Shown in pieces: positions 6,555-64,000 of a stretch of DNA of 64,000 nt. A program made the translations under genes and the position numbers. Source of the DNA: a bacterium (lineage in GTDB: Bacteria; Patescibacteriota; Minisyncoccia; Phycocordibacterales; Zambryskibacteraceae). Where the stretch lies: assembly GCA_030649135.1 (NCBI GenBank), contig JAUSGI010000004.1, positions 32,001-96,000 on the forward strand, in the 5' to 3' direction. The notes beneath the pieces are model-generated. The model had not been told where the DNA came from. It searched no databases and saw nothing but the letters and a program-made list of their open reading frames with translations. The first letter of the stretch is position 1. Each line of letters opens with the position of its first letter.

Positions 6555-7983
6555 AAGTATTTTCGTATTTATATTTGGTTCTATCTTCGGTATTCTGATT
6601 TCTTCTTTTGTTTTTATTGCTCCGCTGGTGGGCGTTTTGTTTATCATTATCGGTTCGGCCTTACTTAATGTGGAGAAACTTTGGAATAAAATAATAAATA
6701 AAGAAGTTTTATTTCTCTCTCTTGCGTTTCTATCGTTCGGCCTCGGTGTCCTGCGTTATTCGATTAAAGATTTTCACGAGCCGCTCGTTCCAACTTTCCA
6801 AGGCGTTGTTATAAGCGAGCCGGAACAGGGAGAAAATACTACTCGTTTTGTCTTGCGGACAGACAATGGCGAAAAAGTTTTAGTGAGTACGGATTTGTAT
6901 AGTGCTGTGCAGTATGGAGATGATGTTAAGGCCGCAGGTAAGCTGGAAAAGCCGGGTATTATTGATAATGATACCGGCCGGCCGTTTAATTATGCCGAGT
7001 ATCTTTCGAAAGACGATATTTATTACACTCTAAGTTTTGCGAAAGTCGAAATTTTGTCACACGACCACGGCAATCCCGCGAAGAGCATTCTCTTGAAGAT
7101 AAAAAGGAGTTTCGTAGCCAAAACCAAAGAAATTCTGGCCGAGCCATATGCTAGCCTGCTTTCTGGTCTCATTGTTTCAGGCAAGGAAGCGATGCCGAAA
7201 AATATTCTCGAAGAGTTTCGTCGGGCCGGCATCATACATATCGTGGTACTCTCCGGCTATAACATCACTATCATTGCGGAGTTTGTGAGAACGGTGTTTA
7301 GAAGCGCAGGGTTCTCTATCGTAGGAATTATTCTCTTTGTCATTATGACGGGAGCGCAAGCCACGGTTGTGCGCGCGGCACTTATGGTACTTGCGGTGAT
7401 TCTCGCTAAGGTTTTTCATAGAAAGTTTTCGGCTCCCAGAGCGCTTCTCGTTGCGGCCTTCTTAATGCTTCTCCAGAATCCGAAAATTCTTGTCTTTGAC
7501 CCGTCTTTTCAACTTTCGTTTCTTGCGACTCTCGGCTTAATTTATGTTGTGCCTATAGTCGACCGGTATTTAAAATGGATACCGGGGAAGTGGGGTCTGC
7601 GGGTGGCCATTGCCACTACCTTAGCTACCCAAGTGACCGTTCTGCCCTTCCTCATCTATTCTATGGGTAATGTTTCTTTAGTGTCGCTTCCTGCCAATAT
7701 TATGATTTTGCTCATCATACCCGCCACCATGCTTGCGGGCTTTGTCGCAACACTTGTTGCATACGTAAGTTCTGTCTTAGCCTTACCATTTTCTTACATA
7801 GCCCATCTTCTTTTGGCTTGGATTCTCGGTGTTTCTCACTATCTCGGTAGTTTTTCTTTCGCTTCTATTGCTGTTCCACCTGTGCCCTGGTGGTTAGTGG
7901 TTTTGATTTACCTTGCGATAGTTATTTTTATACAGCGTTGGAAACCTAACGGAGTGGCATATGATACTGTAAACAAGATATGA
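6532..7983 (+). CDS. comEC: ComEC/Rec2 competence membrane channel domain, lacking a fused MBL domain
   Basis: polytopic membrane protein; competence-domain-like IIHIVVLSGYNITII; ORF opens at 6502 but the Met at 6532 is the more likely start. Confidence 0.7.
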   Translation: MDQEVSTKSIFVFIFGSIFGILISSFVFIAPLVGVLFIIIGSALLNVEKLWNKIINKEVLFLSLAFLSFGLGVLRYSIKDFHEPLVPTFQGVVISEPEQGENTTRFVLRTDNGEKVLVSTDLYSAVQYGDDVKAAGKLEKPGIIDNDTGRPFNYAEYLSKDDIYYTLSFAKVEILSHDHGNPAKSILLKIKRSFVAKTKEILAEPYASLLSGLIVSGKEAMPKNILEEFRRAGIIHIVVLSGYNITIIAEFVRTVFRSAGFSIVGIILFVIMTGAQATVVRAALMVLAVILAKVFHRKFSAPRALLVAAFLMLLQNPKILVFDPSFQLSFLATLGLIYVVPIVDRYLKWIPGKWGLRVAIATTLATQVTVLPFLIYSMGNVSLVSLPANIMILLIIPATMLAGFVATLVAYVSSVLALPFSYIAHLLLAWILGVSHYLGSFSFASIAVPPVPWWLVVLIYLAIVIFIQRWKPNGVAYDTVNKI

Positions 7984-47346: not shown

Positions 47347-47356
47347 AGATAACGTG

Positions 47357-47430
47357 TCCACCCTCTTGGATTCGAACCAAGGACCCCAGAGGTATAAGCT
47401 CTGTGCTCTAACCAGCTGAGCTAAGGGTGG
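47357..47430 (-). tRNA. tRNA-Ile with anticodon UAU
   Basis: minus-strand cloverleaf CCACCCT-TA-GCTCAGCTGGTTAGAGC-A-CAGAG-CTTATAC-CTCTG-GGGTC-CTTGG-TTCGAAT-CCAAG-AGGGTGG-A; perfect 7-bp acceptor; anticodon loop CUUAUAC; CCA not encoded. Confidence 0.75.
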
Positions 47431-55460: not shown

Positions 55461-56606
55461 ATGGATGTAGAAATAAAGAAACAACCAAAAACCAGCATTA
55501 CTGAGGATATTGATTGTGTAATTAAGCTTGAGCCACTTACAATTTTTGCTGGGAATAATAATTCAGGTAAGACTCATTTGATTAACGCTATAGGGAAAAA
55601 ACTGTCTGAGAATGACATAAATGTTGTGCATATCCCAAGTGAGAGGATACTTGTAGAGAATGAATTGAAGACAGGAGCAGAAAAGGATCCATTAAGAGCG
55701 GCTCTCGGTGATTTGATTGAGTTTGCTTTTGATGCCGACAGTTCAATCTCTAGTGATGTTTCTGATATCTCAGTAATACTTCCTGCTGAATTTATACAAT
55801 ATGGTATTGAGAATATAGATATTTCGGTAAAGACAAACACTCTCACTAACGATGAATATAAAAAAGCTTTAAAAGATGCTCACATAAAAAAGCTTATCGA
55901 TTCCATAGTTATATCTGACAAATACTGTGGAGTTGAGGACATAAGTCCATCAAATGTGGGTCAAGGAACACAAAGAATGATTGTCGTTTCTCTAATTAGA
56001 TATCTACAGCGTAAAAAATTTGAGAAGGATGGTCGAACAAGTAAACCAACATATATTATTTTTGAAGAACCAGAGATATACCTTCACCCAAAAATGAAGG
56101 CAACCTTGTATGCACTAATTCAAGCCATAGCTAATGATGGAAGATTGAATACTAAAGTTATCTTAACTACCCACGACCCATACTTTATTGATATGGGTAG
56201 AAATGCAAAAATTTATCGGGTCTTTAGGGATCCTTTGAAGAATTTTTCTACACAATTAATGGATGTACAAAAAGACGTATTACTGTACCCATCTTCTGCA
56301 GAAATAAACTATATTGTATTTGAGCAGGTTAGCCCTACTTATTTACTTGAATTGTATGAAAGTAAAAAACAAGAAACTGAATTAAAGCTTGGAAAGAAGT
56401 TGGGAGGTCTTAAGTATTATGAATTCGATCTAGCTTTATTTAATAAAATTGGAGAACCTCAATCTTCTACTGATGATGATGGACATCCCGTTACGTTTAT
56501 AACTCGGATAAGGCATGATATGGCACACCCCTCTACCTCCATATTAGATTCTTTTGAGTCTAGAGGAAAGGAAGCTATTGAAAAATTAAGAAATTACAAA
56601 GCTTAA
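55461..56606 (+). CDS. AAA15/AAA21-type ABC-like ATPase (PtuA/OLD-N-terminal-like)
   Basis: Walker A GNNNSGKT; Q-loop/signature-like NVGQGTQR; Walker B TYIIFEEPEIYLHP; H-loop LTTHDP. Confidence 0.7.
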   Translation: MDVEIKKQPKTSITEDIDCVIKLEPLTIFAGNNNSGKTHLINAIGKKLSENDINVVHIPSERILVENELKTGAEKDPLRAALGDLIEFAFDADSSISSDVSDISVILPAEFIQYGIENIDISVKTNTLTNDEYKKALKDAHIKKLIDSIVISDKYCGVEDISPSNVGQGTQRMIVVSLIRYLQRKKFEKDGRTSKPTYIIFEEPEIYLHPKMKATLYALIQAIANDGRLNTKVILTTHDPYFIDMGRNAKIYRVFRDPLKNFSTQLMDVQKDVLLYPSSAEINYIVFEQVSPTYLLELYESKKQETELKLGKKLGGLKYYEFDLALFNKIGEPQSSTDDDGHPVTFITRIRHDMAHPSTSILDSFESRGKEAIEKLRNYKA

Positions 56607-56610
56607 ATCT

Positions 56611-56640
56611 GTTTGTAAAACTCTAAAATTTGTGGGATAT
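56611..56640 (+). promoter_or_regulatory. conserved promoter/operator motif, copy 3 (HNH gene)
   Basis: GTTTGTAAAACTCTAAAATTTGTGGGATAT followed by a GGAGG SD. Confidence 0.55.
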
Positions 56641-56653
56641 TTGGAGGACAAAC

Positions 56654-57841
56654 ATGGAAGATGAAATAAAGCGATATTTTGAGGGCATAGATCTTGATAT
56701 TCGGAAGCAATCTCGGGGCTATTCACGCTTCATGGATCAGAAAGTTGCTCCAGATGTCCTGTCTTTTATTGCTGATTCTGTAGTCAATTCTATGGATGGA
56801 AAGGAGCCTGGTACCACCTTTACCATTGGTGATGTATGGGAGTTTCCTTACTTTGTAAAAAATACAGAAGCTGTATTCGGGAAACCCTCTCCAGAAAATG
56901 AAACCACGGAATCTGAGTATGATAAATTTATCGCCCAGCCCTTAAAAACCCTTGCTTTTGCTAAGATTCTGGAAGAAGAAAAAGTTGGAGGGAAAAATAC
57001 ATATAAGGTTCTAAGGCCCGATATTTTGGAGTATATTTCTCAAAGCGAGAAAAACGCCTTTATATTTTTAGTCCTCTATATTGAAAAGGTTTTATCTGAC
57101 AGTGGATTCATAAAAAACTTCGAGGAATATAGGGAAAAGGCGCAGTCAAATAAACTAAAACCAGAAGATCTTGAAATATTAAAAAAAAGATTCCAAAAAT
57201 TCATTTTGGGCAATACCAATATAAATGGCGTAATAGAAATAAATAGAGTATTTCCGAAAGTTCTAAATCCTTATGCAGCTTCACATCAAATTCCAGGAAT
57301 AGAAAGGGGGCACATAACTTCTGGTAGATTTATTTACCCAGATCTCATGTATAACCGAGAAAATTTTAGGGACATTGGAAAAGACAAGACTGTAAGTAGA
57401 CAAGAAGCGTTAAGAGAAATTACTCAGCAGCCAGAAGTTGTTGAATATCGAGTTCAAAAAGCAAAAAGTATTATACGGCGCCATCATTCAAGTAGTGAGG
57501 TTAAGGATAGCTTGGCAGTAGGCGAAGCGACTCAGGTTCATCATATTTTTTCAGACCATGAATTTCCTGAAATATCTGATTATATTGAAAACCTTATTTT
57601 ACTAACACCTCAGCAGCACAACACAAGAGCTCATCCAAAAAATAAAACAAATACCGTTGACGCAGAGTATCAAAGGGAATGCTTGTTATCTAAAATTGAT
57701 TCGATTGAGATGTCCGTAAGTAAGCGAGACAGCCTGTATTCTAAGGAAAGATTTATACACGTTGTGAATATTGGCTATGAACTTGATCTCTCGACAAATA
57801 CTAGTTTTGAAGAATTGAGAGATATTATTCGAAAGAGATAG
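56654..57841 (+). CDS. HNH-motif protein (PtuB-like partner) with a large N-terminal domain of unknown function
   Basis: C-terminal region QVHHIFSDHEFPEISDYIENLILLTPQQHNTRAH (HH...N...H); start at MEDEIKRYF (the listed ORF uses an upstream TTG). Confidence 0.55.
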   Translation: MEDEIKRYFEGIDLDIRKQSRGYSRFMDQKVAPDVLSFIADSVVNSMDGKEPGTTFTIGDVWEFPYFVKNTEAVFGKPSPENETTESEYDKFIAQPLKTLAFAKILEEEKVGGKNTYKVLRPDILEYISQSEKNAFIFLVLYIEKVLSDSGFIKNFEEYREKAQSNKLKPEDLEILKKRFQKFILGNTNINGVIEINRVFPKVLNPYAASHQIPGIERGHITSGRFIYPDLMYNRENFRDIGKDKTVSRQEALREITQQPEVVEYRVQKAKSIIRRHHSSSEVKDSLAVGEATQVHHIFSDHEFPEISDYIENLILLTPQQHNTRAHPKNKTNTVDAEYQRECLLSKIDSIEMSVSKRDSLYSKERFIHVVNIGYELDLSTNTSFEELRDIIRKR

Positions 57842-57845
57842 TTTT

Positions 57846-60365
57846 CTAGCGATTTATGCCAAAAAAGAATACTGAATTATTGTCGATGTTTAAAGATCTG
57901 GTACCGTGATTCCTTGCTACTCGATAAAATTGGGTGAATTCGTCTGTTCCAAAATAATCAAGGTCTTTTAGAGTTATCTTAGCTCCGGGTTCTTTTAGGG
58001 TGAGGATTGCCACAGACCCATCAACAAGCGTGTTCTCTGGTAAAAATGAAGCTCTGGGAGCATAGGTCAGGTTTGGCACCAAGACGCTATTTTCTTTATT
58101 CCAAAACTTAGAGATTGATAACCCGTCTAACGAATCAACATAAGAGTCATAATTTGGAATGTTCAGGATCTCATTTCGTCCGATATTTCTTGATTTCAAT
58201 ATTCTTATTTTCCCCTTGTTTTTTGTTATCTTTTTTGTAATTTGTCGATCTCTGTAAGATGTAAATATATTGAATCGAAGTTTTTTTGCAACGAAGTCAA
58301 AGAATTCATTTCTGTACACCAACCAGTAAGGAAAATCTTTCGAACAAATATAAGATTGATCTTTATAACCAATTTCGTTTTTTACATAAGACTCAACGAG
58401 AGTCCGGGCCCCTTTATTACGAGTATTGATAATCAAACTGATTGTCTCAATCTTCACACCCCTGAACCCTTTTTCTCCATAGTCTGTGATTTTTTCAATG
58501 GCAAATGACGAAGCAAGTTCTCTTGTTTTGTTAAATTCGGGTGCTGATAGAAAACTTTTGGGAATAATAAGACCTACGGTATCTCCTTGTTGCATTGCTT
58601 TCTCGAGAAAAAAAGAAAATAGATTATTTGTTTCGGCATTATATTTATTCTTCTTATAAGTGTTTAGGAGAACTTTATTTTCAGATATATCTCCGAATGG
58701 TGGATTGCCAATAACGATATCGTATCTTTTAGATTGGCCAAATAAATTAGTCTCTCCATGCAATAGAAAATCTGCGTTAATTAAATTGATCTTGATATTT
58801 TTTGGAACATCAAGTTTTTTTAGTAAAAGTTTAAGAATCTCAATTGCATTTTTGTCGATATCAACTACATCAATAGTTACCTCCTTAACTGTTTTATATT
58901 TTTGAACAAGAAGCGGGAGAAAATTACCAGCACCGACTGATGGTTCTAATATAGAAAGTTTTTCAAACTTTGATACATCAGGAAGATCTTTTACTATAGT
59001 GAAGCAAATGTCCTGTCTGGTGTAATACGCGGCGTGCTGAAGACGTTGGGCATTTGAAAGCTCGACGATTTTAGCTAATTCGGGGTAGCTAAAATTTTGC
59101 ATATTCTCTTCGAGAAAAGTCTTAATATTTTCTTCTATATTAAGCCTTTCATCTTGGATTAATTTTTTTATTTGGATTTCATTATTTTCAACATTTCTAA
59201 GCTTTGACTTGATATTTTTAGCTATACCGTTGAATATAATTGTGGGGACTGCCTCACCTAGTGATTGTCTTATATTTATCTCTTCTTTCTTGAGAATTTT
59301 CCTCTTTTCTTCATTTGACAACTTATTTAATTCATCAAGCGGAGTAGATACCCAATTAAAAGAATCTGGTACGGACATCATTCTCATTAACTCTCTAATA
59401 CTAAATACCCTGTTATCTTTTGGATGAATGGTTGCTTGGCTCGCAAATATATCGTTTCGGGTATGTATACAAGGAGCAACTTTATCCCAATAACATCGTG
59501 AGTATTTATCTCCGTTCTTGTTTTCATTGTGTACAATCTTTCCGTTTATGATTTGGTGAGGTCGCTTTTTGGCATCAGTATTATCAAACGCAGATTGTCC
59601 CTCCTTGGTATTCTCAATCCAAGAAAGCATATGCTCAGCGTACGGACGAAAATTGTGATAGATGTCCTTTTTATCAATCTCACCCATATTTTTAAGAGAT
59701 GAAAGGTTGCCTATCGTATCACGCAAGGTACCACCATCTTTCAATACTGGCATTAGATCAAGAGGTGTAACTTCTTGAATATCTTTTCGTACTCCTATAA
59801 CGAGTGTTCGGGTTCTACTCGATGGATTACCATAATCTTTGAAATTGATTACTTGATAGTGGATGTTATATTTACCTCCAAGATTTACTTCAATTGCTTC
59901 ACGAATTTGTTTTTGTTTCTTATCGATGTCAGTGCAGAGTGTAGATAGAAAAGCCCTCACATTCTCAAATATAAAAACTTTCGGTCTAATTTCATCTACA
60001 ATTTTTATTGATTCAACGACAAGAGAATTTCGTTCAAGCTCATCCCTTTTTTTGTGATTGGCTACAGACATACCCTGACATGGGGGTGTTGCCAATAAAA
60101 CTTCAACTTCTTTTAAACCTTGCTTTGATTTCCAGAGATCAATTTCTGAAAATATTTTTTCTTGAGTGGCTTTTTTTGTGATGTCATCAGCAATATAACC
60201 ACTTGGATATAAACACTTATTATTATGTCTTTGCACATCCAAACGTCTGTTCATAAGTTCAACAGTTGCAACACAATCAAATCCTTCTTTAGAAAAACCA
60301 TAGCAACCAACGCCGGCGCTACTGAATAAACTTATATATGTTAATTTTTTATTTTGGTTTTTCAT
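57846..60365 (-). CDS. fused DNA methyltransferase: N-terminal C5-cytosine MTase plus C-terminal N6-adenine (gamma-class) MTase
   Basis: C5 motifs: I (FSSAGVG), IV (PPCQGMS), VI (FENVRAF), X-like (GEAVP). N6A motifs: I (LEPSVGAGNF), IV (NPPFG). 839 aa. Confidence 0.75.
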   Translation of the reverse strand: MKNQNKKLTYISLFSSAGVGCYGFSKEGFDCVATVELMNRRLDVQRHNNKCLYPSGYIADDITKKATQEKIFSEIDLWKSKQGLKEVEVLLATPPCQGMSVANHKKRDELERNSLVVESIKIVDEIRPKVFIFENVRAFLSTLCTDIDKKQKQIREAIEVNLGGKYNIHYQVINFKDYGNPSSRTRTLVIGVRKDIQEVTPLDLMPVLKDGGTLRDTIGNLSSLKNMGEIDKKDIYHNFRPYAEHMLSWIENTKEGQSAFDNTDAKKRPHQIINGKIVHNENKNGDKYSRCYWDKVAPCIHTRNDIFASQATIHPKDNRVFSIRELMRMMSVPDSFNWVSTPLDELNKLSNEEKRKILKKEEINIRQSLGEAVPTIIFNGIAKNIKSKLRNVENNEIQIKKLIQDERLNIEENIKTFLEENMQNFSYPELAKIVELSNAQRLQHAAYYTRQDICFTIVKDLPDVSKFEKLSILEPSVGAGNFLPLLVQKYKTVKEVTIDVVDIDKNAIEILKLLLKKLDVPKNIKINLINADFLLHGETNLFGQSKRYDIVIGNPPFGDISENKVLLNTYKKNKYNAETNNLFSFFLEKAMQQGDTVGLIIPKSFLSAPEFNKTRELASSFAIEKITDYGEKGFRGVKIETISLIINTRNKGARTLVESYVKNEIGYKDQSYICSKDFPYWLVYRNEFFDFVAKKLRFNIFTSYRDRQITKKITKNKGKIRILKSRNIGRNEILNIPNYDSYVDSLDGLSISKFWNKENSVLVPNLTYAPRASFLPENTLVDGSVAILTLKEPGAKITLKDLDYFGTDEFTQFYRVARNHGTRSLNIDNNSVFFFGINR

Positions 60366-60369
60366 GAAT

Positions 60370-60984
60370 TTATAGTGTTCTAATTATTTTTTCTACTATA
60401 CCCCTAATCTCAACTTGTTTTCGGTAAAAAGGTTTGAGGTTTTTATTTGCAGGCTGTAATCTGATTTTCCCTTTTTCCTTATATATTTTTTTAAGTGTTA
60501 CTTGATTGTCGTCAATGATGGCCACGGCAGTTTGTCCATTATCAGCTACGTTTTGAGATCGAATGACAACAATATCTCCATCAAAGATTCCATCCTCAAT
60601 CATACTGTCTCCTTTAACCTGTAGCGCATAGTGTTGAAAAGGTAGTTTGATATCACTTCTCGGGACGGTAATTGTTTTTTCGTTTATTTCCATTGCTTCA
60701 ATAGGCTCTCCAGCTGCAATACTACCAAGCAGTGGAATTTCTACGGTCGATTTTTCTTTCATCGTAGAAATAGTTCTTGGTTGATTTTCTTCTTTTGTGA
60801 GTAAACCCTTTTTTTGTAAGTGTTTAATGTGGAAATGGGCTGTTGAGACGGAAGCAAGTTTAAAATTTTGCTGTATTTCTACTAAAGAGGGAGCATACCC
60901 ATTCTTTTTTTGTGATTGCTTCACAAAATCTAGAACCATTTTTTGTTTTTTAGTAAGCATAGATATTGACATACTATTTATCAC
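60370..60984 (-). CDS. lexA: LexA repressor (S24 peptidase)
   Basis: LexA DNA-binding domain (LTKKQKMVLDFV...GYAPSLVEI); AAGEP Ala-Gly cleavage site; GDSM Ser and TLKK Lys. Confidence 0.85.
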   Translation of the reverse strand: MINSMSISMLTKKQKMVLDFVKQSQKKNGYAPSLVEIQQNFKLASVSTAHFHIKHLQKKGLLTKEENQPRTISTMKEKSTVEIPLLGSIAAGEPIEAMEINEKTITVPRSDIKLPFQHYALQVKGDSMIEDGIFDGDIVVIRSQNVADNGQTAVAIIDDNQVTLKKIYKEKGKIRLQPANKNLKPFYRKQVEIRGIVEKIIRTL

Positions 60985-61085
60985 GGAGGTATACTTCCAT
61001 TATAGAAGGAAAATAGAAGGTCTACAAGACCTACTTATCCACACCTCCTATATAAAGATCGAATTAGTAATAGTTCTAAAAAAAT

Positions 61086-61292
61086 ATGGCAAAACCTAAA
61101 TACATAGCAAAGTCTGGTCAGCCTTGGGCTCCAGCTGAAGTAAAACAGTTGAAAAGCATGGGAGGCAGGGTGCCTACTGGCGTTATTGGTTTGAAACTTC
61201 AGAGACCAGTTGCAGGAGTACGGGCAAAAGCTCAAGAAATCGGCATGAGTTTGAAGCCGGTAAATAAATCGCCACGATCAAAGCTTAAATAG
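61086..61292 (+). CDS. hypothetical small basic protein
   Basis: 68 aa; no motif recognised. Confidence 0.3.
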   Translation: MAKPKYIAKSGQPWAPAEVKQLKSMGGRVPTGVIGLKLQRPVAGVRAKAQEIGMSLKPVNKSPRSKLK

Positions 61293-61651: not shown

Positions 61652-62131
61652 ATGGATAAAAATAATACAAATGAATTGAGTGCTGTTTTATCTGGAGTAG
61701 CCGGGGAGTATTTTGTTGCCGGTGAGTTATCGAGAAGAGGATTTCTTGCTTCGATCACCCTTAGAAATACTAAAGGGGTTGATATCCAATGTTCAAATGG
61801 AGACGCTAGTAAATCAGTCAGCATACAAGTAAAAACAAATAAGGGTTCATCTAGAAAATGGGTTATGAACCGCAAGGCCGAGGATTATTATGCTGATAAT
61901 CTTTTCTATATTTTTGTGAATCTAAATGACAATAAAAAATCTCCAGATTATTTTGTGGTACCGAGTAAAGTCGCTGCGGAATATACAAAAAAGAATCATA
62001 TTGAATGGCTAGGAAGGCCAAGACGTGATGGTAATCCTCACAAAGATAACGACATGAGAAAATTTGTTGACTTAGAAGAAAGGTACTTAAATCGCTGGGA
62101 ATTGCTTGGGCTGGATATTCAAATTATATAG
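61652..62131 (+). CDS. hypothetical protein, possible PD-(D/E)xK-fold nuclease
   Basis: GVDIQCSN...SVSIQVKTN resembles a D...(E/Q)xK core; weak. Confidence 0.3.
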   Translation: MDKNNTNELSAVLSGVAGEYFVAGELSRRGFLASITLRNTKGVDIQCSNGDASKSVSIQVKTNKGSSRKWVMNRKAEDYYADNLFYIFVNLNDNKKSPDYFVVPSKVAAEYTKKNHIEWLGRPRRDGNPHKDNDMRKFVDLEERYLNRWELLGLDIQII

Positions 62132-62656: not shown

Positions 62657-62746
62657 GACGCTTACTGGAGCCGTCGCATAGTGGTCTAGTGCGCCTCACT
62701 GCTAACGAGGTAGGGTCTAAAAGCCCTCGAGGGTTCAAATCCCTCC
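62657..62746 (+). tRNA. tRNA-Ser (anticodon GCU), type II with long variable arm, CCA encoded
   Basis: GGAGCCG acceptor pairs with CGGCTCC; anticodon loop CTGCTAA; variable arm AGGG...CCCT; T-arm GAGGG-TTCAAAT-CCCTC; G-CCA 3' end. Confidence 0.8.
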
Positions 62747-62804
62747 GGCTCCGCCAGATGACCAAGTTTGAACCGAAGCAAAATAAGGATATATTACCCA
62801 AATT

Positions 62805-63506
62805 ATGACCCTACTAGAACTCAAACGAAAATTGAGAGCCATTCAAGCTCTCGGATTTGTAAAGACACATCGTACAGGTGATACAGGCATTGGGAAAACG
62901 CTCGAGGATCTTCTTGGTATTAAAGAAAACAATATCCCACTTCCTGATATCGGCGAAATAGCAGAACTCAAAGCATATCGAAAAAATGCAACATCAATGC
63001 TGACGCTTTTTACGCTTGAACCTCGACCTAAAGGTGGAGATCGCGATCGAGTACTTCTGGATAGTTTTGGCTATTCAAAAAGAGATAATGGTCGCTCAAA
63101 AGAATTGCATAGCACTCTTTCGTGTAAGCGTTACAACAATCAAGGTCTGAAGCTCAAGGTTGAGAAAGATAAAGTGCGAGTCGTTGGCAAAGGCAGGAGA
63201 TTAAATATTTACTGGGACATGGAGGATCTCCAAAAGAAATTCGAGGCAAAATTGCCAGCCTTAGTATATGCACTAGCAGACTGTAAAGAAGTAAGAGGTG
63301 TCGAGCATTTCCATTTTAACCAAGCTTTCTTTTTAGAGGGCTTCGATTTTGAACACTTCAAAAGTCTGGTAAAGAAAGACGCCATTGTTGTAGATTTTAG
63401 AATGTTTTATCGTCCAAGTGGCTCCGTCCGTAATCACGGCACTGGTTTTAGGGTAAAAATAAAACAACTCTATAACTGCTTCGACACAAAGGTTGAGCTG
63501 ATTTAA
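62805..63506 (+). CDS. Type II restriction endonuclease, MvaI/BcnI-like
   Basis: TGDTGIGKTLEDLLGIKENNIPLPDIGEIAELK...SMLTLFT matches my recollection of the MvaI/BcnI family N-terminal region; convergent with an MTase. Confidence 0.6.
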   Translation: MTLLELKRKLRAIQALGFVKTHRTGDTGIGKTLEDLLGIKENNIPLPDIGEIAELKAYRKNATSMLTLFTLEPRPKGGDRDRVLLDSFGYSKRDNGRSKELHSTLSCKRYNNQGLKLKVEKDKVRVVGKGRRLNIYWDMEDLQKKFEAKLPALVYALADCKEVRGVEHFHFNQAFFLEGFDFEHFKSLVKKDAIVVDFRMFYRPSGSVRNHGTGFRVKIKQLYNCFDTKVELI

Positions 63507-64000
63507 TTTTTTCTCAAAACAACAATACTTTCTTTGTTCATCGTTTCCTCTAATGCACCCACGATATTTGTCGGAGAGTTTTTGATCGGCATTCTTTTGC
63601 CGGGAATATTTCGAACTATTATATCTTCGCAAGTAAATCCTATTTTTTCTGCTAATTCAGCAATAATAAAATCGGTGGGAATTCGCACTTGTTTAACTAA
63701 TCTATTTCCAACAACGAGACAGAAGTACTTTTTTGGTTTGAGTACCCTATGTGCTTGTTTCAAGCATTCATTTAAGCCTATATTAAAACTCAATACATCT
63801 CTTGCTCTTGCCTCATCTTGCTTGGCGATTTTTTCTAATGATTCTTTGAGATAATCGGATGAAAGTATATGAGTTAGATTCTTGCTGGCTCTACCCCCAA
63901 GAAGATTATTGTCTACAGCAGAAGCATCGTTTGGATCATCAAAAACATCAATCCACTGCGCCGAAAGGCGAGAAAACTGTCCATAAGCAACTGTAGTGCG
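63503..64000 (-). CDS. N4/N6 DNA methyltransferase (C-terminal part; gene continues beyond the window end)
   Basis: ECLKQAHRVLKPKKYFCLVVGN is typical of the N6_N4_Mtase family; the reading frame stays open to position 64000. Confidence 0.65.
   Translation of the reverse strand, partial: RTTVAYGQFSRLSAQWIDVFDDPNDASAVDNNLLGGRASKNLTHILSSDYLKESLEKIAKQDEARARDVLSFNIGLNECLKQAHRVLKPKKYFCLVVGNRLVKQVRIPTDFIIAELAEKIGFTCEDIIVRNIPGKRMPIKNSPTNIVGALEETMNKESIVVLRKN

Follow-up and report, generated by a model that had tools for sequence, protein, structure and literature searches.

Genes at the lexA locus

The DNA analysed in this study is a 64-kb window (64,000 nucleotides of contig JAUSGI010000004.1, assembly GCA_030649135.1) from a member of the Patescibacteria, in which a lexA gene lies directly upstream of a DNA methyltransferase gene. 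On sequence grounds, the region at 55.4-62.1 kb of the window is a horizontally acquired defence island, the core of which is a type IIS restriction-modification (R-M) cassette of the HpyAV/Hin4II kind together with lexA. The genes of this core are listed below; positions are those of the window.

60370..60960, minus strand: lexA, 196 amino acids from ATG 60960 (the caller of open reading frames (ORFs) extends it to GTG 60984)
60709-60714, 60604-60606 and 60490-60492, minus strand: lexA codons of the Ala-Gly cleavage site, the catalytic Ser and the catalytic Lys, respectively
57846..60365, minus strand: type II methyltransferase, 839 amino acids, starting 4 nt past the lexA stop codon, with a C5-cytosine N-terminal part and a gamma-class N6-adenine C-terminal part
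56654..57841, plus strand: cognate HNH nuclease, with ATG 56654 as the likely start in a 403-amino-acid ORF that opens at TTG 56630; convergent with the methyltransferase gene

Analysis of the LexA protein identified an N-terminal winged-helix domain (Pfam LexA_DNA_bind, PF01726, 61.9 bits) and a C-terminal self-cleaving domain (Peptidase_S24, PF00717, 102.2 bits). Against NCBIfam TIGR00498 (lexA) the protein scored 188 bits, the cutoff being 111, and its best solved relative is the LexA of Thermotoga (3K2Z), aligned over the full length with an E-value of 9e-37. The AAGEP, GDSM and TLKK motifs are all present. The initial annotation of this minus-strand ORF as a LexA with an AAGEP cleavage site and a GDSM/K catalytic dyad is thus borne out, and the protein is a genuine member of the LexA family. 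Residues A83-G84, S119 and K157 (numbering of the 196-amino-acid protein) were found to be invariant across 19 relatives, and the same Ala-Gly, Ser and Lys are invariant in the window LexA and in 54 of 54 complete fusion proteins from the metagenome loci described in the next section. Since all relatives begin with M-[LIV]-T-K-[KR]-Q, the real start of lexA is almost certainly ATG 60960. The adjacency of lexA to the 839-amino-acid ORF also holds, with a gap of 4 nt and not the 5 bp originally given.

The 839-amino-acid ORF encodes a fusion of a C5-cytosine and an N6-adenine methyltransferase, as had been proposed. Both domains were found by Pfam (PF00145 at residues 9-340; Eco57I/N6_Mtase, PF07669/PF02384, at residues 443-652), and the motifs LEPSVGAGNF, NPPFG, PPCQG and ENV all occur in the translation. 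The PADLOC profile PDLC03277 (823 positions) matched from end to end, residues 6-839 aligning to profile positions 5-820 with 768 bits, and more than 100 full-length homologs of 829-855 amino acids have the same domain set at 77-100% identity. A frameshifted merge of two separate methyltransferase genes is ruled out by these homologs and by the end-to-end profile match. The co-transcription of a dual methyltransferase with LexA had been called unusual; the co-orientation of the two genes stands and their co-transcription is almost certain, whereas the dual enzyme itself has a precedent in M.HpyAV, a confirmed fusion of C5 and N6A methyltransferases of 823 amino acids (PMC2816704). An asymmetric type IIS site requires a dual-specificity methyltransferase.

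The ORF convergent with the methyltransferase gene matched the PADLOC profile PDLC03488 (REase_II) with 313 bits. Its HNH (beta-beta-alpha-Me) residues are H304, H305, N321 and H330 (numbering of the 403-amino-acid ORF), giving an HH-16-N-9-H spacing identical to that of HpyAV, a 419-amino-acid HNH nuclease with H294, H295, N311 and H320 that cuts CCTTC(6/5) (PMC2816704). The identical spacing and the PADLOC match identify this ORF as the cognate nuclease. The stop codons of the methyltransferase and nuclease genes are 4 nt apart in a tail-to-tail arrangement, no terminator is predicted between the two genes, and an HpyAV-type nuclease adjoins the methyltransferase in 16 of 16 related loci. 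The methyltransferase is thus not an orphan, as the initial annotation had allowed. The nuclease had also been sought at 61652-62131; that ORF has no family match and was rejected, the bona fide HpyAV-type HNH ORF at 56630-57841 being the cognate enzyme instead. A Septu (PtuA + PtuB) pair was likewise considered and rejected, because the PtuA matches are weak (37.5 bits in PADLOC; 18 against a cutoff of 500 in NCBIfam) and because the HNH nuclease is of the HpyAV type and stands without an ATPase in all 16 related loci.

Comparison with the HpyAV/Hin4II systems (PMC2816704) revealed a single C5(N-terminal)+N6A methyltransferase in both cases (823 amino acids there and 839 here), HNH nucleases of about 400-420 amino acids and PADLOC profile matches for both proteins. 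The systems differ in arrangement and host. The usual gene order in HpyAV-type systems, followed by HpyAV itself, is methyltransferase then nuclease on the same strand, whereas the genes in the window are convergent; two exceptions to this order are noted in PMC2816704, so that it is not a strict criterion of the type. Furthermore, lexA precedes the methyltransferase gene here, and the host belongs to the Patescibacteria and not to the animal-associated proteobacteria. Judged from their sequences, the R-M enzymes of the window are new members of the HpyAV/Hin4II family, and by family membership CCTTC is the probable target of the system. This pentamer was found in the methyltransferase promoter of 10 of 10 HpyAV-type cassettes, LexA-linked and LexA-less alike, and is not avoided in host DNA (window positions 1-55400; observed/expected ratio 0.89).

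The guanine-plus-cytosine (GC) content is 0.34-0.36 across lexA (0.347), the methyltransferase gene, the nuclease gene and an adjacent ATPase gene, compared with 0.477 for the host and 0.51 for the neighbouring dinB. In Taylorbacteria contigs, the block is inserted between the pilin genes of a type IV secretion system (T4SS) and rbfA-infB, in the order 68-amino-acid divergent gene, lexA, 4-nt gap, methyltransferase and convergent nuclease. The lexA-methyltransferase-nuclease block occurs with unrelated flanks in Taylorbacteria, Paceibacterota, Doudnabacteria and other contigs, and it was found in six further lineages with LexA 65-97% and methyltransferase 86-91% identical to those of the window. 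Its GC content and its recurrence in unrelated contexts show that lexA belongs to the mobile cassette and not to the host backbone.

LexA-methyltransferase fusions and the lexA promoter

A search with the window LexA returned many matches (55-63% identity) that exceeded LexA in length and contained methyltransferase Pfam domains. When 1.84 billion cluster representatives were searched exhaustively with HMMER, the 54 best LexA relatives included 50 longer than 225 amino acids and 37 of at least 400, LexA always occupying residues 1-196; ordinary LexAs of about 200 amino acids take over below about 48% identity. Identity-based clustering placed the extended proteins in one contiguous block that includes the window LexA. 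A total of 64 complete proteins of 454-890 amino acids with an N-terminal LexA were identified, and each of the 20 scanned with Pfam (20/20) is fused to a DNA methyltransferase. By Pfam, the fusion partners fall into four families: N6_N4_Mtase (PF01555), Dam-like D12 (PF02086), C5 (PF00145) and gamma-class enzymes (PF02384/PF07669, with TaqI_C).

For analysis of gene context, 80 metagenome loci with LexAs 51-81% identical to that of the window were combined with three loci fetched earlier, giving 83 loci (L-numbered below). In 54 of the 83, a single complete ORF of 454-712 amino acids begins with LexA, and in 17 further loci the ORF runs on beyond LexA and reaches the contig end without a stop codon. 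Next to the fusion genes lie mostly convergent ORFs, which directly adjoin the stop codon; nucleases of the MvaI/BcnI (11), TaqI, MutH-like, BsobI, BglII, Bsp6I and BsaWI types are among the neighbours. The convergent arrangement was observed in 34 of the 45 loci with a close neighbour; L019 has a co-directional operon of LexA, methyltransferase and HinfI nuclease. One further protein, P0264, is a LexA fused to an HpyAV-type double methyltransferase, 58% identical to that of the window, and the pair in the window is hence a split version of a fusion. Viral contigs yielded standalone LexAs only and no fusions.

In public databases, the fusion proteins are annotated as "transcriptional repressor LexA" (841 amino acids), as "LexA repressor" or "hypothetical protein" (615 amino acids, Nealsonbacteria, UniRef100_A0A2M7R7Q6) or as "DNA adenine methylase" (512 amino acids). 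The results of this study correct the database annotation of proteins of 500-890 amino acids now labelled LexA, DNA adenine methylase or hypothetical. A full-text literature search, which did not extend to a 2017 study of the SOS response in Patescibacteria, found neither a LexA-methyltransferase fusion nor a LexA-controlled R-M system, and the word "LexA" is absent from a 2026 preprint on methyltransferases of the Candidate Phyla Radiation (CPR). As far as the search reached, this suggests that the coupling of LexA to methyltransferases has not been described before.

The region upstream of lexA contains the following features.

60999..61027, minus strand: promoter of lexA and the methyltransferase gene, with -35 TTGTAG at 61022-61027, a 17-nt spacer and -10 TATAAT at 60999-61004
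60999..61022, minus strand: predicted LexA operator GACCTTCTATTTTCCTTCTATAAT, a tandem direct repeat in the promoter spacer that overlaps the -10
60985..60998, no strand assigned: near-palindrome GGAGGTATACTTCC, abutting the GTG, 24 nt upstream of the ATG and at about +1 of the lexA transcript
60966..60995, plus strand: opposing sigma-70-like promoter TTGACA-18-TATACT (11/12 matches), directed towards the small gene orf68 and interleaved with the lexA promoter
61035..61043, plus strand: DnaA-box-like 9-mer TTATCCACA (TGTGGATAA on the lexA strand), perfect, 8 nt upstream of the -35

The lexA promoter was read from the sequence and is kept in the alignment with relatives. Within it, the predicted operator has the form CCTTCTAT-TTT-CCTTCTAT (61002-61020), the two copies (61013-61020 and 61002-61009) following each other with an 11-bp period, and CCTTC is present in each copy. 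Promoter counts in this study refer to 66 non-redundant related promoters. The direct repeat TTTCKRT-N4-TTTCKRT, with an 11-bp period, was found in 64 of them and usually fills the spacer between -35 and -10. Scanning of the whole window with a position weight matrix (PWM) of the operator revealed the lexA promoter as the sole strong site (27.2 bits); the next score (10.4 bits) is within the range of shuffled sequence, and the scan found no operator site at dinB. In 498 kb of related loci, the scan gave 56 strong sites at lexA promoters, four elsewhere and none at nuclease starts. The tandem direct repeat is likely to be the LexA operator, to which LexA would bind. It agrees with the LexA motif of Patescibacteria, which is a direct repeat according to PMC7739468, and standalone LexAs of Patescibacteria have the same direct-repeat operator type. 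The variable dinucleotide of the operator is identical in both repeats of one promoter (TA/TA, GG/GG or GA/GA) and tracks the predicted recognition helix of LexA, TA or GA occurring with S-T-A-H-[FYH] and GG with T-[VI]-H-[QE]-H.

Other elements near the promoter were examined as LexA boxes. The near-palindrome centred on GTATAC, proposed as such in the initial annotation, was rejected: it is not conserved in L001, L012 and L015, where LexA is 77-83% identical to that of the window, and it overlaps the -10 (TATACT) of the opposing promoter, whereas the direct repeat is the conserved element. A perfect 6-3-6 palindrome over the -35, AGGTCTTGTAGACCT (61018-61032), was also discarded, as it occurs in the closest relatives only and is missing in the same three loci. 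Inspection by eye around the lexA promoter found no Gram-positive-type GAAC-N4-GTTC box.

Comparison between cassette types revealed that CCTTC is part of the operator in all HpyAV-type cassettes (7/7) and in none of the others (0/59), the difference arising from a T-to-C change at an otherwise invariant position. The LexA-less cassettes L013 (~385-400), L014 (~7960-7975) and L016 (~6590-6605) carry CCTTCC in the -35 region of the methyltransferase promoter. These sites suggest that methylation of the promoter, or binding of the methyltransferase there, feeds back on expression. In L016, a TGTGGATAAC motif is kept upstream and is possibly a remnant of a lost lexA promoter.

Opposing promoters similar to that of the window were found in 30 of the 66 relatives, compared with about 3 expected. 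Because the two promoters interleave, transcription from the opposing one would pass through the LexA operator, and RNA polymerase could probably not bind both simultaneously. LexA bound to the repeats would sit just downstream of the opposing start site and therefore could block transcription in both directions. In many relatives GTCAA, the -35 of the opposing promoter, is conserved just before the lexA ATG. The exact DnaA-box 9-mer occurs in 34 of the 66 related promoters (31, plus 3 in inverted orientation) against an expectation of 0.07, usually 19-24 nt upstream of the repeat, and could link methyltransferase expression to replication initiation. Examples are L018, L019, L024, L033, L036 and L039; in L010 and L012, the 9-mer marks the homology boundary of the cassette.

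Proposed role of LexA in the cassette

The recurrence of the cassette, the fusions and the operator favour the reading, offered in the initial annotation among others, of an R-M system with LexA as its controller. Gene identities, cassette mobility, the fusion family, the conservation and covariation of the operator and the retention of catalytic residues were computed; from these results we infer that LexA binds the repeats and is cleaved in a RecA-dependent manner, in which direction the nuclease is affected, and that the system is specific for CCTTC. Taken together, it appears moderately probable that LexA is a self-cleaving autorepressor which ties methyltransferase expression to DNA damage.

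In the proposed mechanism, a single promoter would yield both LexA and the methyltransferase, and a LexA dimer on the two tandem CCTTCTAT repeats between -35 and -10 would shut off its own operon (negative autoregulation). In a naive cell without LexA, the methyltransferase would be made first and at full rate, and transcription from the lexA promoter would run head-on into the tail-to-tail nuclease gene. As LexA builds up, methyltransferase synthesis would decrease to a maintenance level. Because the Ala-Gly site and the Ser/Lys dyad are strictly conserved, RecA on single-stranded DNA (ssDNA) should trigger self-cleavage of LexA, after which expression of the methyltransferase would rise again. 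The ssDNA may come from DNA damage, from phage attack or from cutting of under-methylated DNA by the nuclease of the system itself, and cleavage, by boosting methylation, would provide a type II system with a loop for restriction alleviation. As the same methyltransferase occurs both separate from LexA and fused to it, the outcome of cleavage shared by both forms would be derepression and not loss of the enzyme.

Several points weigh against this mechanism. Binding of LexA to the repeats and RecA-dependent cleavage are both steps that we infer, and cleaved fusions would keep the S24 domain on the methyltransferase, a fragment whose effect could be the opposite of the predicted one. The lexA promoter has a weak -35, matching the consensus at 3 of 6 positions, for which reason the consensus scan did not list this promoter, and no Shine-Dalgarno sequence was found upstream of the lexA ATG. 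HpyAV-type cassettes that work without LexA occur in L014, in L016 and on the contig of P0053, as well as in L013, so that LexA is dispensable for the R-M system. The covariation of repeat and recognition helix looks like co-evolution of repressor and site, with shared ancestry as a contributing and confounding factor. The view of the genome is 64 kb, and a standalone LexA may be present outside the window. Lastly, a study by Sanchez-Osuna et al. (2017, Environ Microbiol), reportedly on the SOS response and the LexA motif of Patescibacteria, may already mention these proteins.

Four other explanations were weighed against autorepression. LexA might be an ordinary SOS repressor beside which the R-M system landed by chance, their co-transcription being functionally meaningless. 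The protein does score above the NCBIfam cutoff for lexA equivalogs, the classical SOS gene dinB is 5 kb away, and the operator type is shared with standalone LexAs of Patescibacteria; however, lexA has the GC content of the island and not of the host, the lexA-methyltransferase-nuclease block is found again amid unrelated flanking genes, the nearest relatives of the protein carry a fused methyltransferase, no operator was found at dinB or elsewhere in the 64 kb beyond the lexA promoter, and a second LexA-linked methyltransferase is probably present at the window end. On balance this explanation is quite unlikely. A role as CI/SetR-like maintenance repressor of a larger integrative element, with the R-M system as cargo and with damage inducing transfer or excision instead of tuning methylation, is very improbable. 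S24 repressors with such a role are well known (lambda CI and SXT SetR), the low-GC island contains several unknown small genes, and the cassettes often abut tRNA 3' ends as integrative islands do. Against this, no integrase, excisionase, replication or transfer genes were seen in the island or in the 16 related loci, the lexA-methyltransferase-nuclease block is the only one common to all loci, the protein has a LexA winged helix and not a CI-type helix-turn-helix (HTH), and translational fusion to a methyltransferase would be senseless for a repressor of a whole element.

The LexA module could also serve as a suicide trigger, cleavage upon damage destabilising the fused methyltransferase or unbalancing it relative to the nuclease, which would then kill the cell (abortive infection). 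In E. coli, the cleavage fragments of LexA are degraded by ClpXP, and cleavage of the window LexA would leave -I-A-A, a sequence similar to a degradation tag, at the end of the N-terminal fragment; moreover, derepression of co-directional operons such as that of L019 (LexA, methyltransferase, HinfI) would raise the nuclease too. Split and fused forms exist at 58% identity, however, and cleavage of the split form can only derepress, while in the 34 of 45 loci with a convergent close neighbour derepression should oppose transcription of the nuclease; we regard a suicide function as quite improbable overall, though it may apply to fusions or to co-directional operons. The main control might instead be exerted by the CCTTC site of the system itself in the promoter, through methylation or methyltransferase binding, with LexA as a secondary layer or as a reader of the methylation state. 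Control by methylation of a promoter site is used by CfrBI, and the distribution of CCTTC among operators (7/7 HpyAV-type cassettes, 0/59 others) and the CCTTCC of the LexA-less L013, L014 and L016 at the methyltransferase -35 fit such a scheme. On the other side, the specificity is taken from family membership only, the seven cassettes are mutually related, and the operators linked to MvaI/BcnI, TaqI and Dam enzymes are without their expected sites. As the main control this is unlikely; it is compatible with autorepression by LexA, and the two may act together.

If LexA does act as a damage-responsive autorepressor of the methyltransferase, a wider and more tentative generalization can be considered, which we hold to be possible but on the whole doubtful. 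The type II R-M systems of Patescibacteria would have a dedicated LexA lineage as their usual transferable control module, joined by fusion or by gene coupling to methyltransferases from at least four families. Methylation, and restriction by way of convergent transcription, would then respond to the RecA/ssDNA damage signal. Replication status may enter as a further input through the conserved DnaA box, the methylation state in HpyAV-type systems may be read through the CCTTC of the operator, and where these genes are the sole lexA genes, mobile R-M cassettes would supply the SOS repressor. Patescibacteria, to our knowledge, are largely without CRISPR.

How restriction systems spare the host on entry, and when repair or replication leaves DNA unmethylated, is a long-standing question. 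Known answers are C proteins, HTH-methyltransferase fusions, antisense RNAs and, limited to type I systems, proteolytic restriction alleviation after damage. If this reading is true, methyltransferases with a fused self-cleaving LexA would constitute a further solution and give type II systems a direct DNA-damage input, and damage-responsive control of defence (CapW, CapH/CapP, CapK/CapS) would extend to the classical SOS repressor itself. Should the cassette LexAs be the only lexA genes of a genome, loss of the cassette would deregulate its SOS response. The cassettes would also be a source of small repressor-operator pairs inducible by damage, with the TA, GA and GG operators as naturally occurring variants of specificity.

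Comparison with known regulators revealed both similarities and differences. Like the C proteins (C.PvuII, C.AhdI and C.Esp1396I), whose presumed effect in a new host is to hold restriction back behind methylation, the window LexA is a small cassette-encoded DNA-binding protein with predicted autoregulation. C proteins have an Xre-type HTH and palindromic C-boxes, and they usually activate and then repress a C-R operon without signal input; the window regulator, in contrast, has a LexA winged helix and a self-cleaving domain, heads the methyltransferase gene with a predicted direct-repeat operator and could be inactivated by damage. It had no Pfam match to HTH_3 or HTH_31, which sets it apart from C proteins. 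The C5 methyltransferases of the SsoII/EcoRII/MspI type are similar in that an N-terminal DNA-binding module represses their own promoter and shifts the balance with an overlapping or opposing promoter. Unlike in these enzymes, the module here is a complete LexA of about 196 amino acids with a protease domain, occurs on four unrelated methyltransferase families and is a separate polypeptide in the window.

The regulators CapW/BrxR (WYL), CapH+CapP and CapK+CapS (PMC11662680; bioRxiv 10.1101/2022.04.27.489752; PMC13373217) likewise comprise a repressor that heads an immune operon and is inactivated by ssDNA or DNA damage, and CapK+CapS are also found beside R-M systems (same sources). Their detection of ssDNA is direct or relies on a peptidase or kinase partner, whereas sensing here would fall to the classical RecA-LexA axis, with a repressor that in relatives forms one polypeptide with the protective enzyme; LexA is not mentioned in those papers. 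With the canonical SOS LexA, including that of Patescibacteria (PMC7739468), the window protein shares the domain architecture, cleavage site, catalytic dyad, presumably autoregulated promoter and direct-repeat operator type. It differs in that the operator is absent from the SOS genes of the window, in that the gene lies in a mobile low-GC R-M cassette and in that its clade is dominated by methyltransferase fusions.

A second cassette and neighbouring features

A further R-M cassette, next to a tRNA gene, was identified at the end of the window.

62667..62756, strand not stated: tRNA-Ser, from the tRNA search
62805..63506, plus strand: MvaI/BcnI-family nuclease (Pfam PF15515, 182 bits), starting 49 nt after tRNA-Ser
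63503..64000, minus strand: C-terminal 165 residues of the methyltransferase of the second cassette, the ORF being open at the window end; convergent with the MvaI/BcnI nuclease

The 165 residues of this methyltransferase are 94.5% identical to residues 457-621 of a 621-amino-acid LexA-methyltransferase fusion (blastx), and 13 of 13 homologs (74-94.5% identity) are proteins of 618-624 amino acids that begin with LexA. For this reason, another LexA module is probably located shortly after the window end, and this genome probably has two LexA modules within 5 kb. The case for a second LexA is weakened by the nuclease of the second cassette, which is only 37% identical to its counterpart in L024. 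Comparison of the two proteins within each cassette type revealed the same imbalance: in the HpyAV-type cassettes (L001-L016 against the window) the methyltransferases are 84-91% and the nucleases 31-77% identical, and in the MvaI-type cassette (window against L024) the values are 94.5% for the methyltransferase C-terminus and 37% for the nuclease. This suggests, for both cassette types, replacement of the nuclease or its much faster evolution beside a fixed methyltransferase.

Other features of the island and of the flanking host DNA are as follows.

61086..61292, plus strand: orf68, small basic protein, divergent from lexA
55461..56606, plus strand: ABC-type ATPase (AAA_15/AAA_21), GC content 0.339
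47356..47430, minus strand: tRNA-Ile, anticodon TAT

The gene orf68 was found as a partner in HpyAV-type cassettes only, with 94% identity in L001-L008, 90% in L009, 59% in L015 and 50% in L044. It gave no Pfam match even at E<=5, and its single-sequence AlphaFold model was of low confidence (pLDDT 60), too poor for a fold search; a suspected resemblance to the N-terminus of GcrA was not confirmed. The ATPase resembles AriA, OLD and GajA, without a nuclease domain. Its gene ends 47 nt before the likely ATG of the nuclease (56654), within the same low-GC island, and is missing from every other cassette examined, which makes an add-on or an independent defence gene the probable reading; the ATPase may also be a local accessory of the nuclease. 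The 159-amino-acid ORF at 61652-62131 (plus strand) has homologs of 33-36% identity in L039 (243-713) and L081 (362-727), about 1.9 kb upstream of LexA-methyltransferase genes, and may be a recurrent neighbour in defence islands.

The nuclease side of the cassettes abuts a tRNA 3' end (Ser-CGA, Ser-GCT or Leu) in L001, L010, L011, L012, L019 and L022. On the P0053 contig, a LexA-less HpyAV-type pair and several unknown genes lie inside the ribosomal protein operon, between rplB and rpsS. A tRNA-Ile with the TAT anticodon, as found in the window, is uncommon in bacteria. Analysis of pentamers in host DNA (window positions 1-55400) revealed strong avoidance of CTCAG/CTGAG (18 observed against 55 expected), and CCWGG (53 against 84 expected), GCWGC, CAGTG and GGWCC are also avoided. 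These avoided pentamers look like the footprints of several R-M systems, and CCWGG would fit the MvaI-type cassette.

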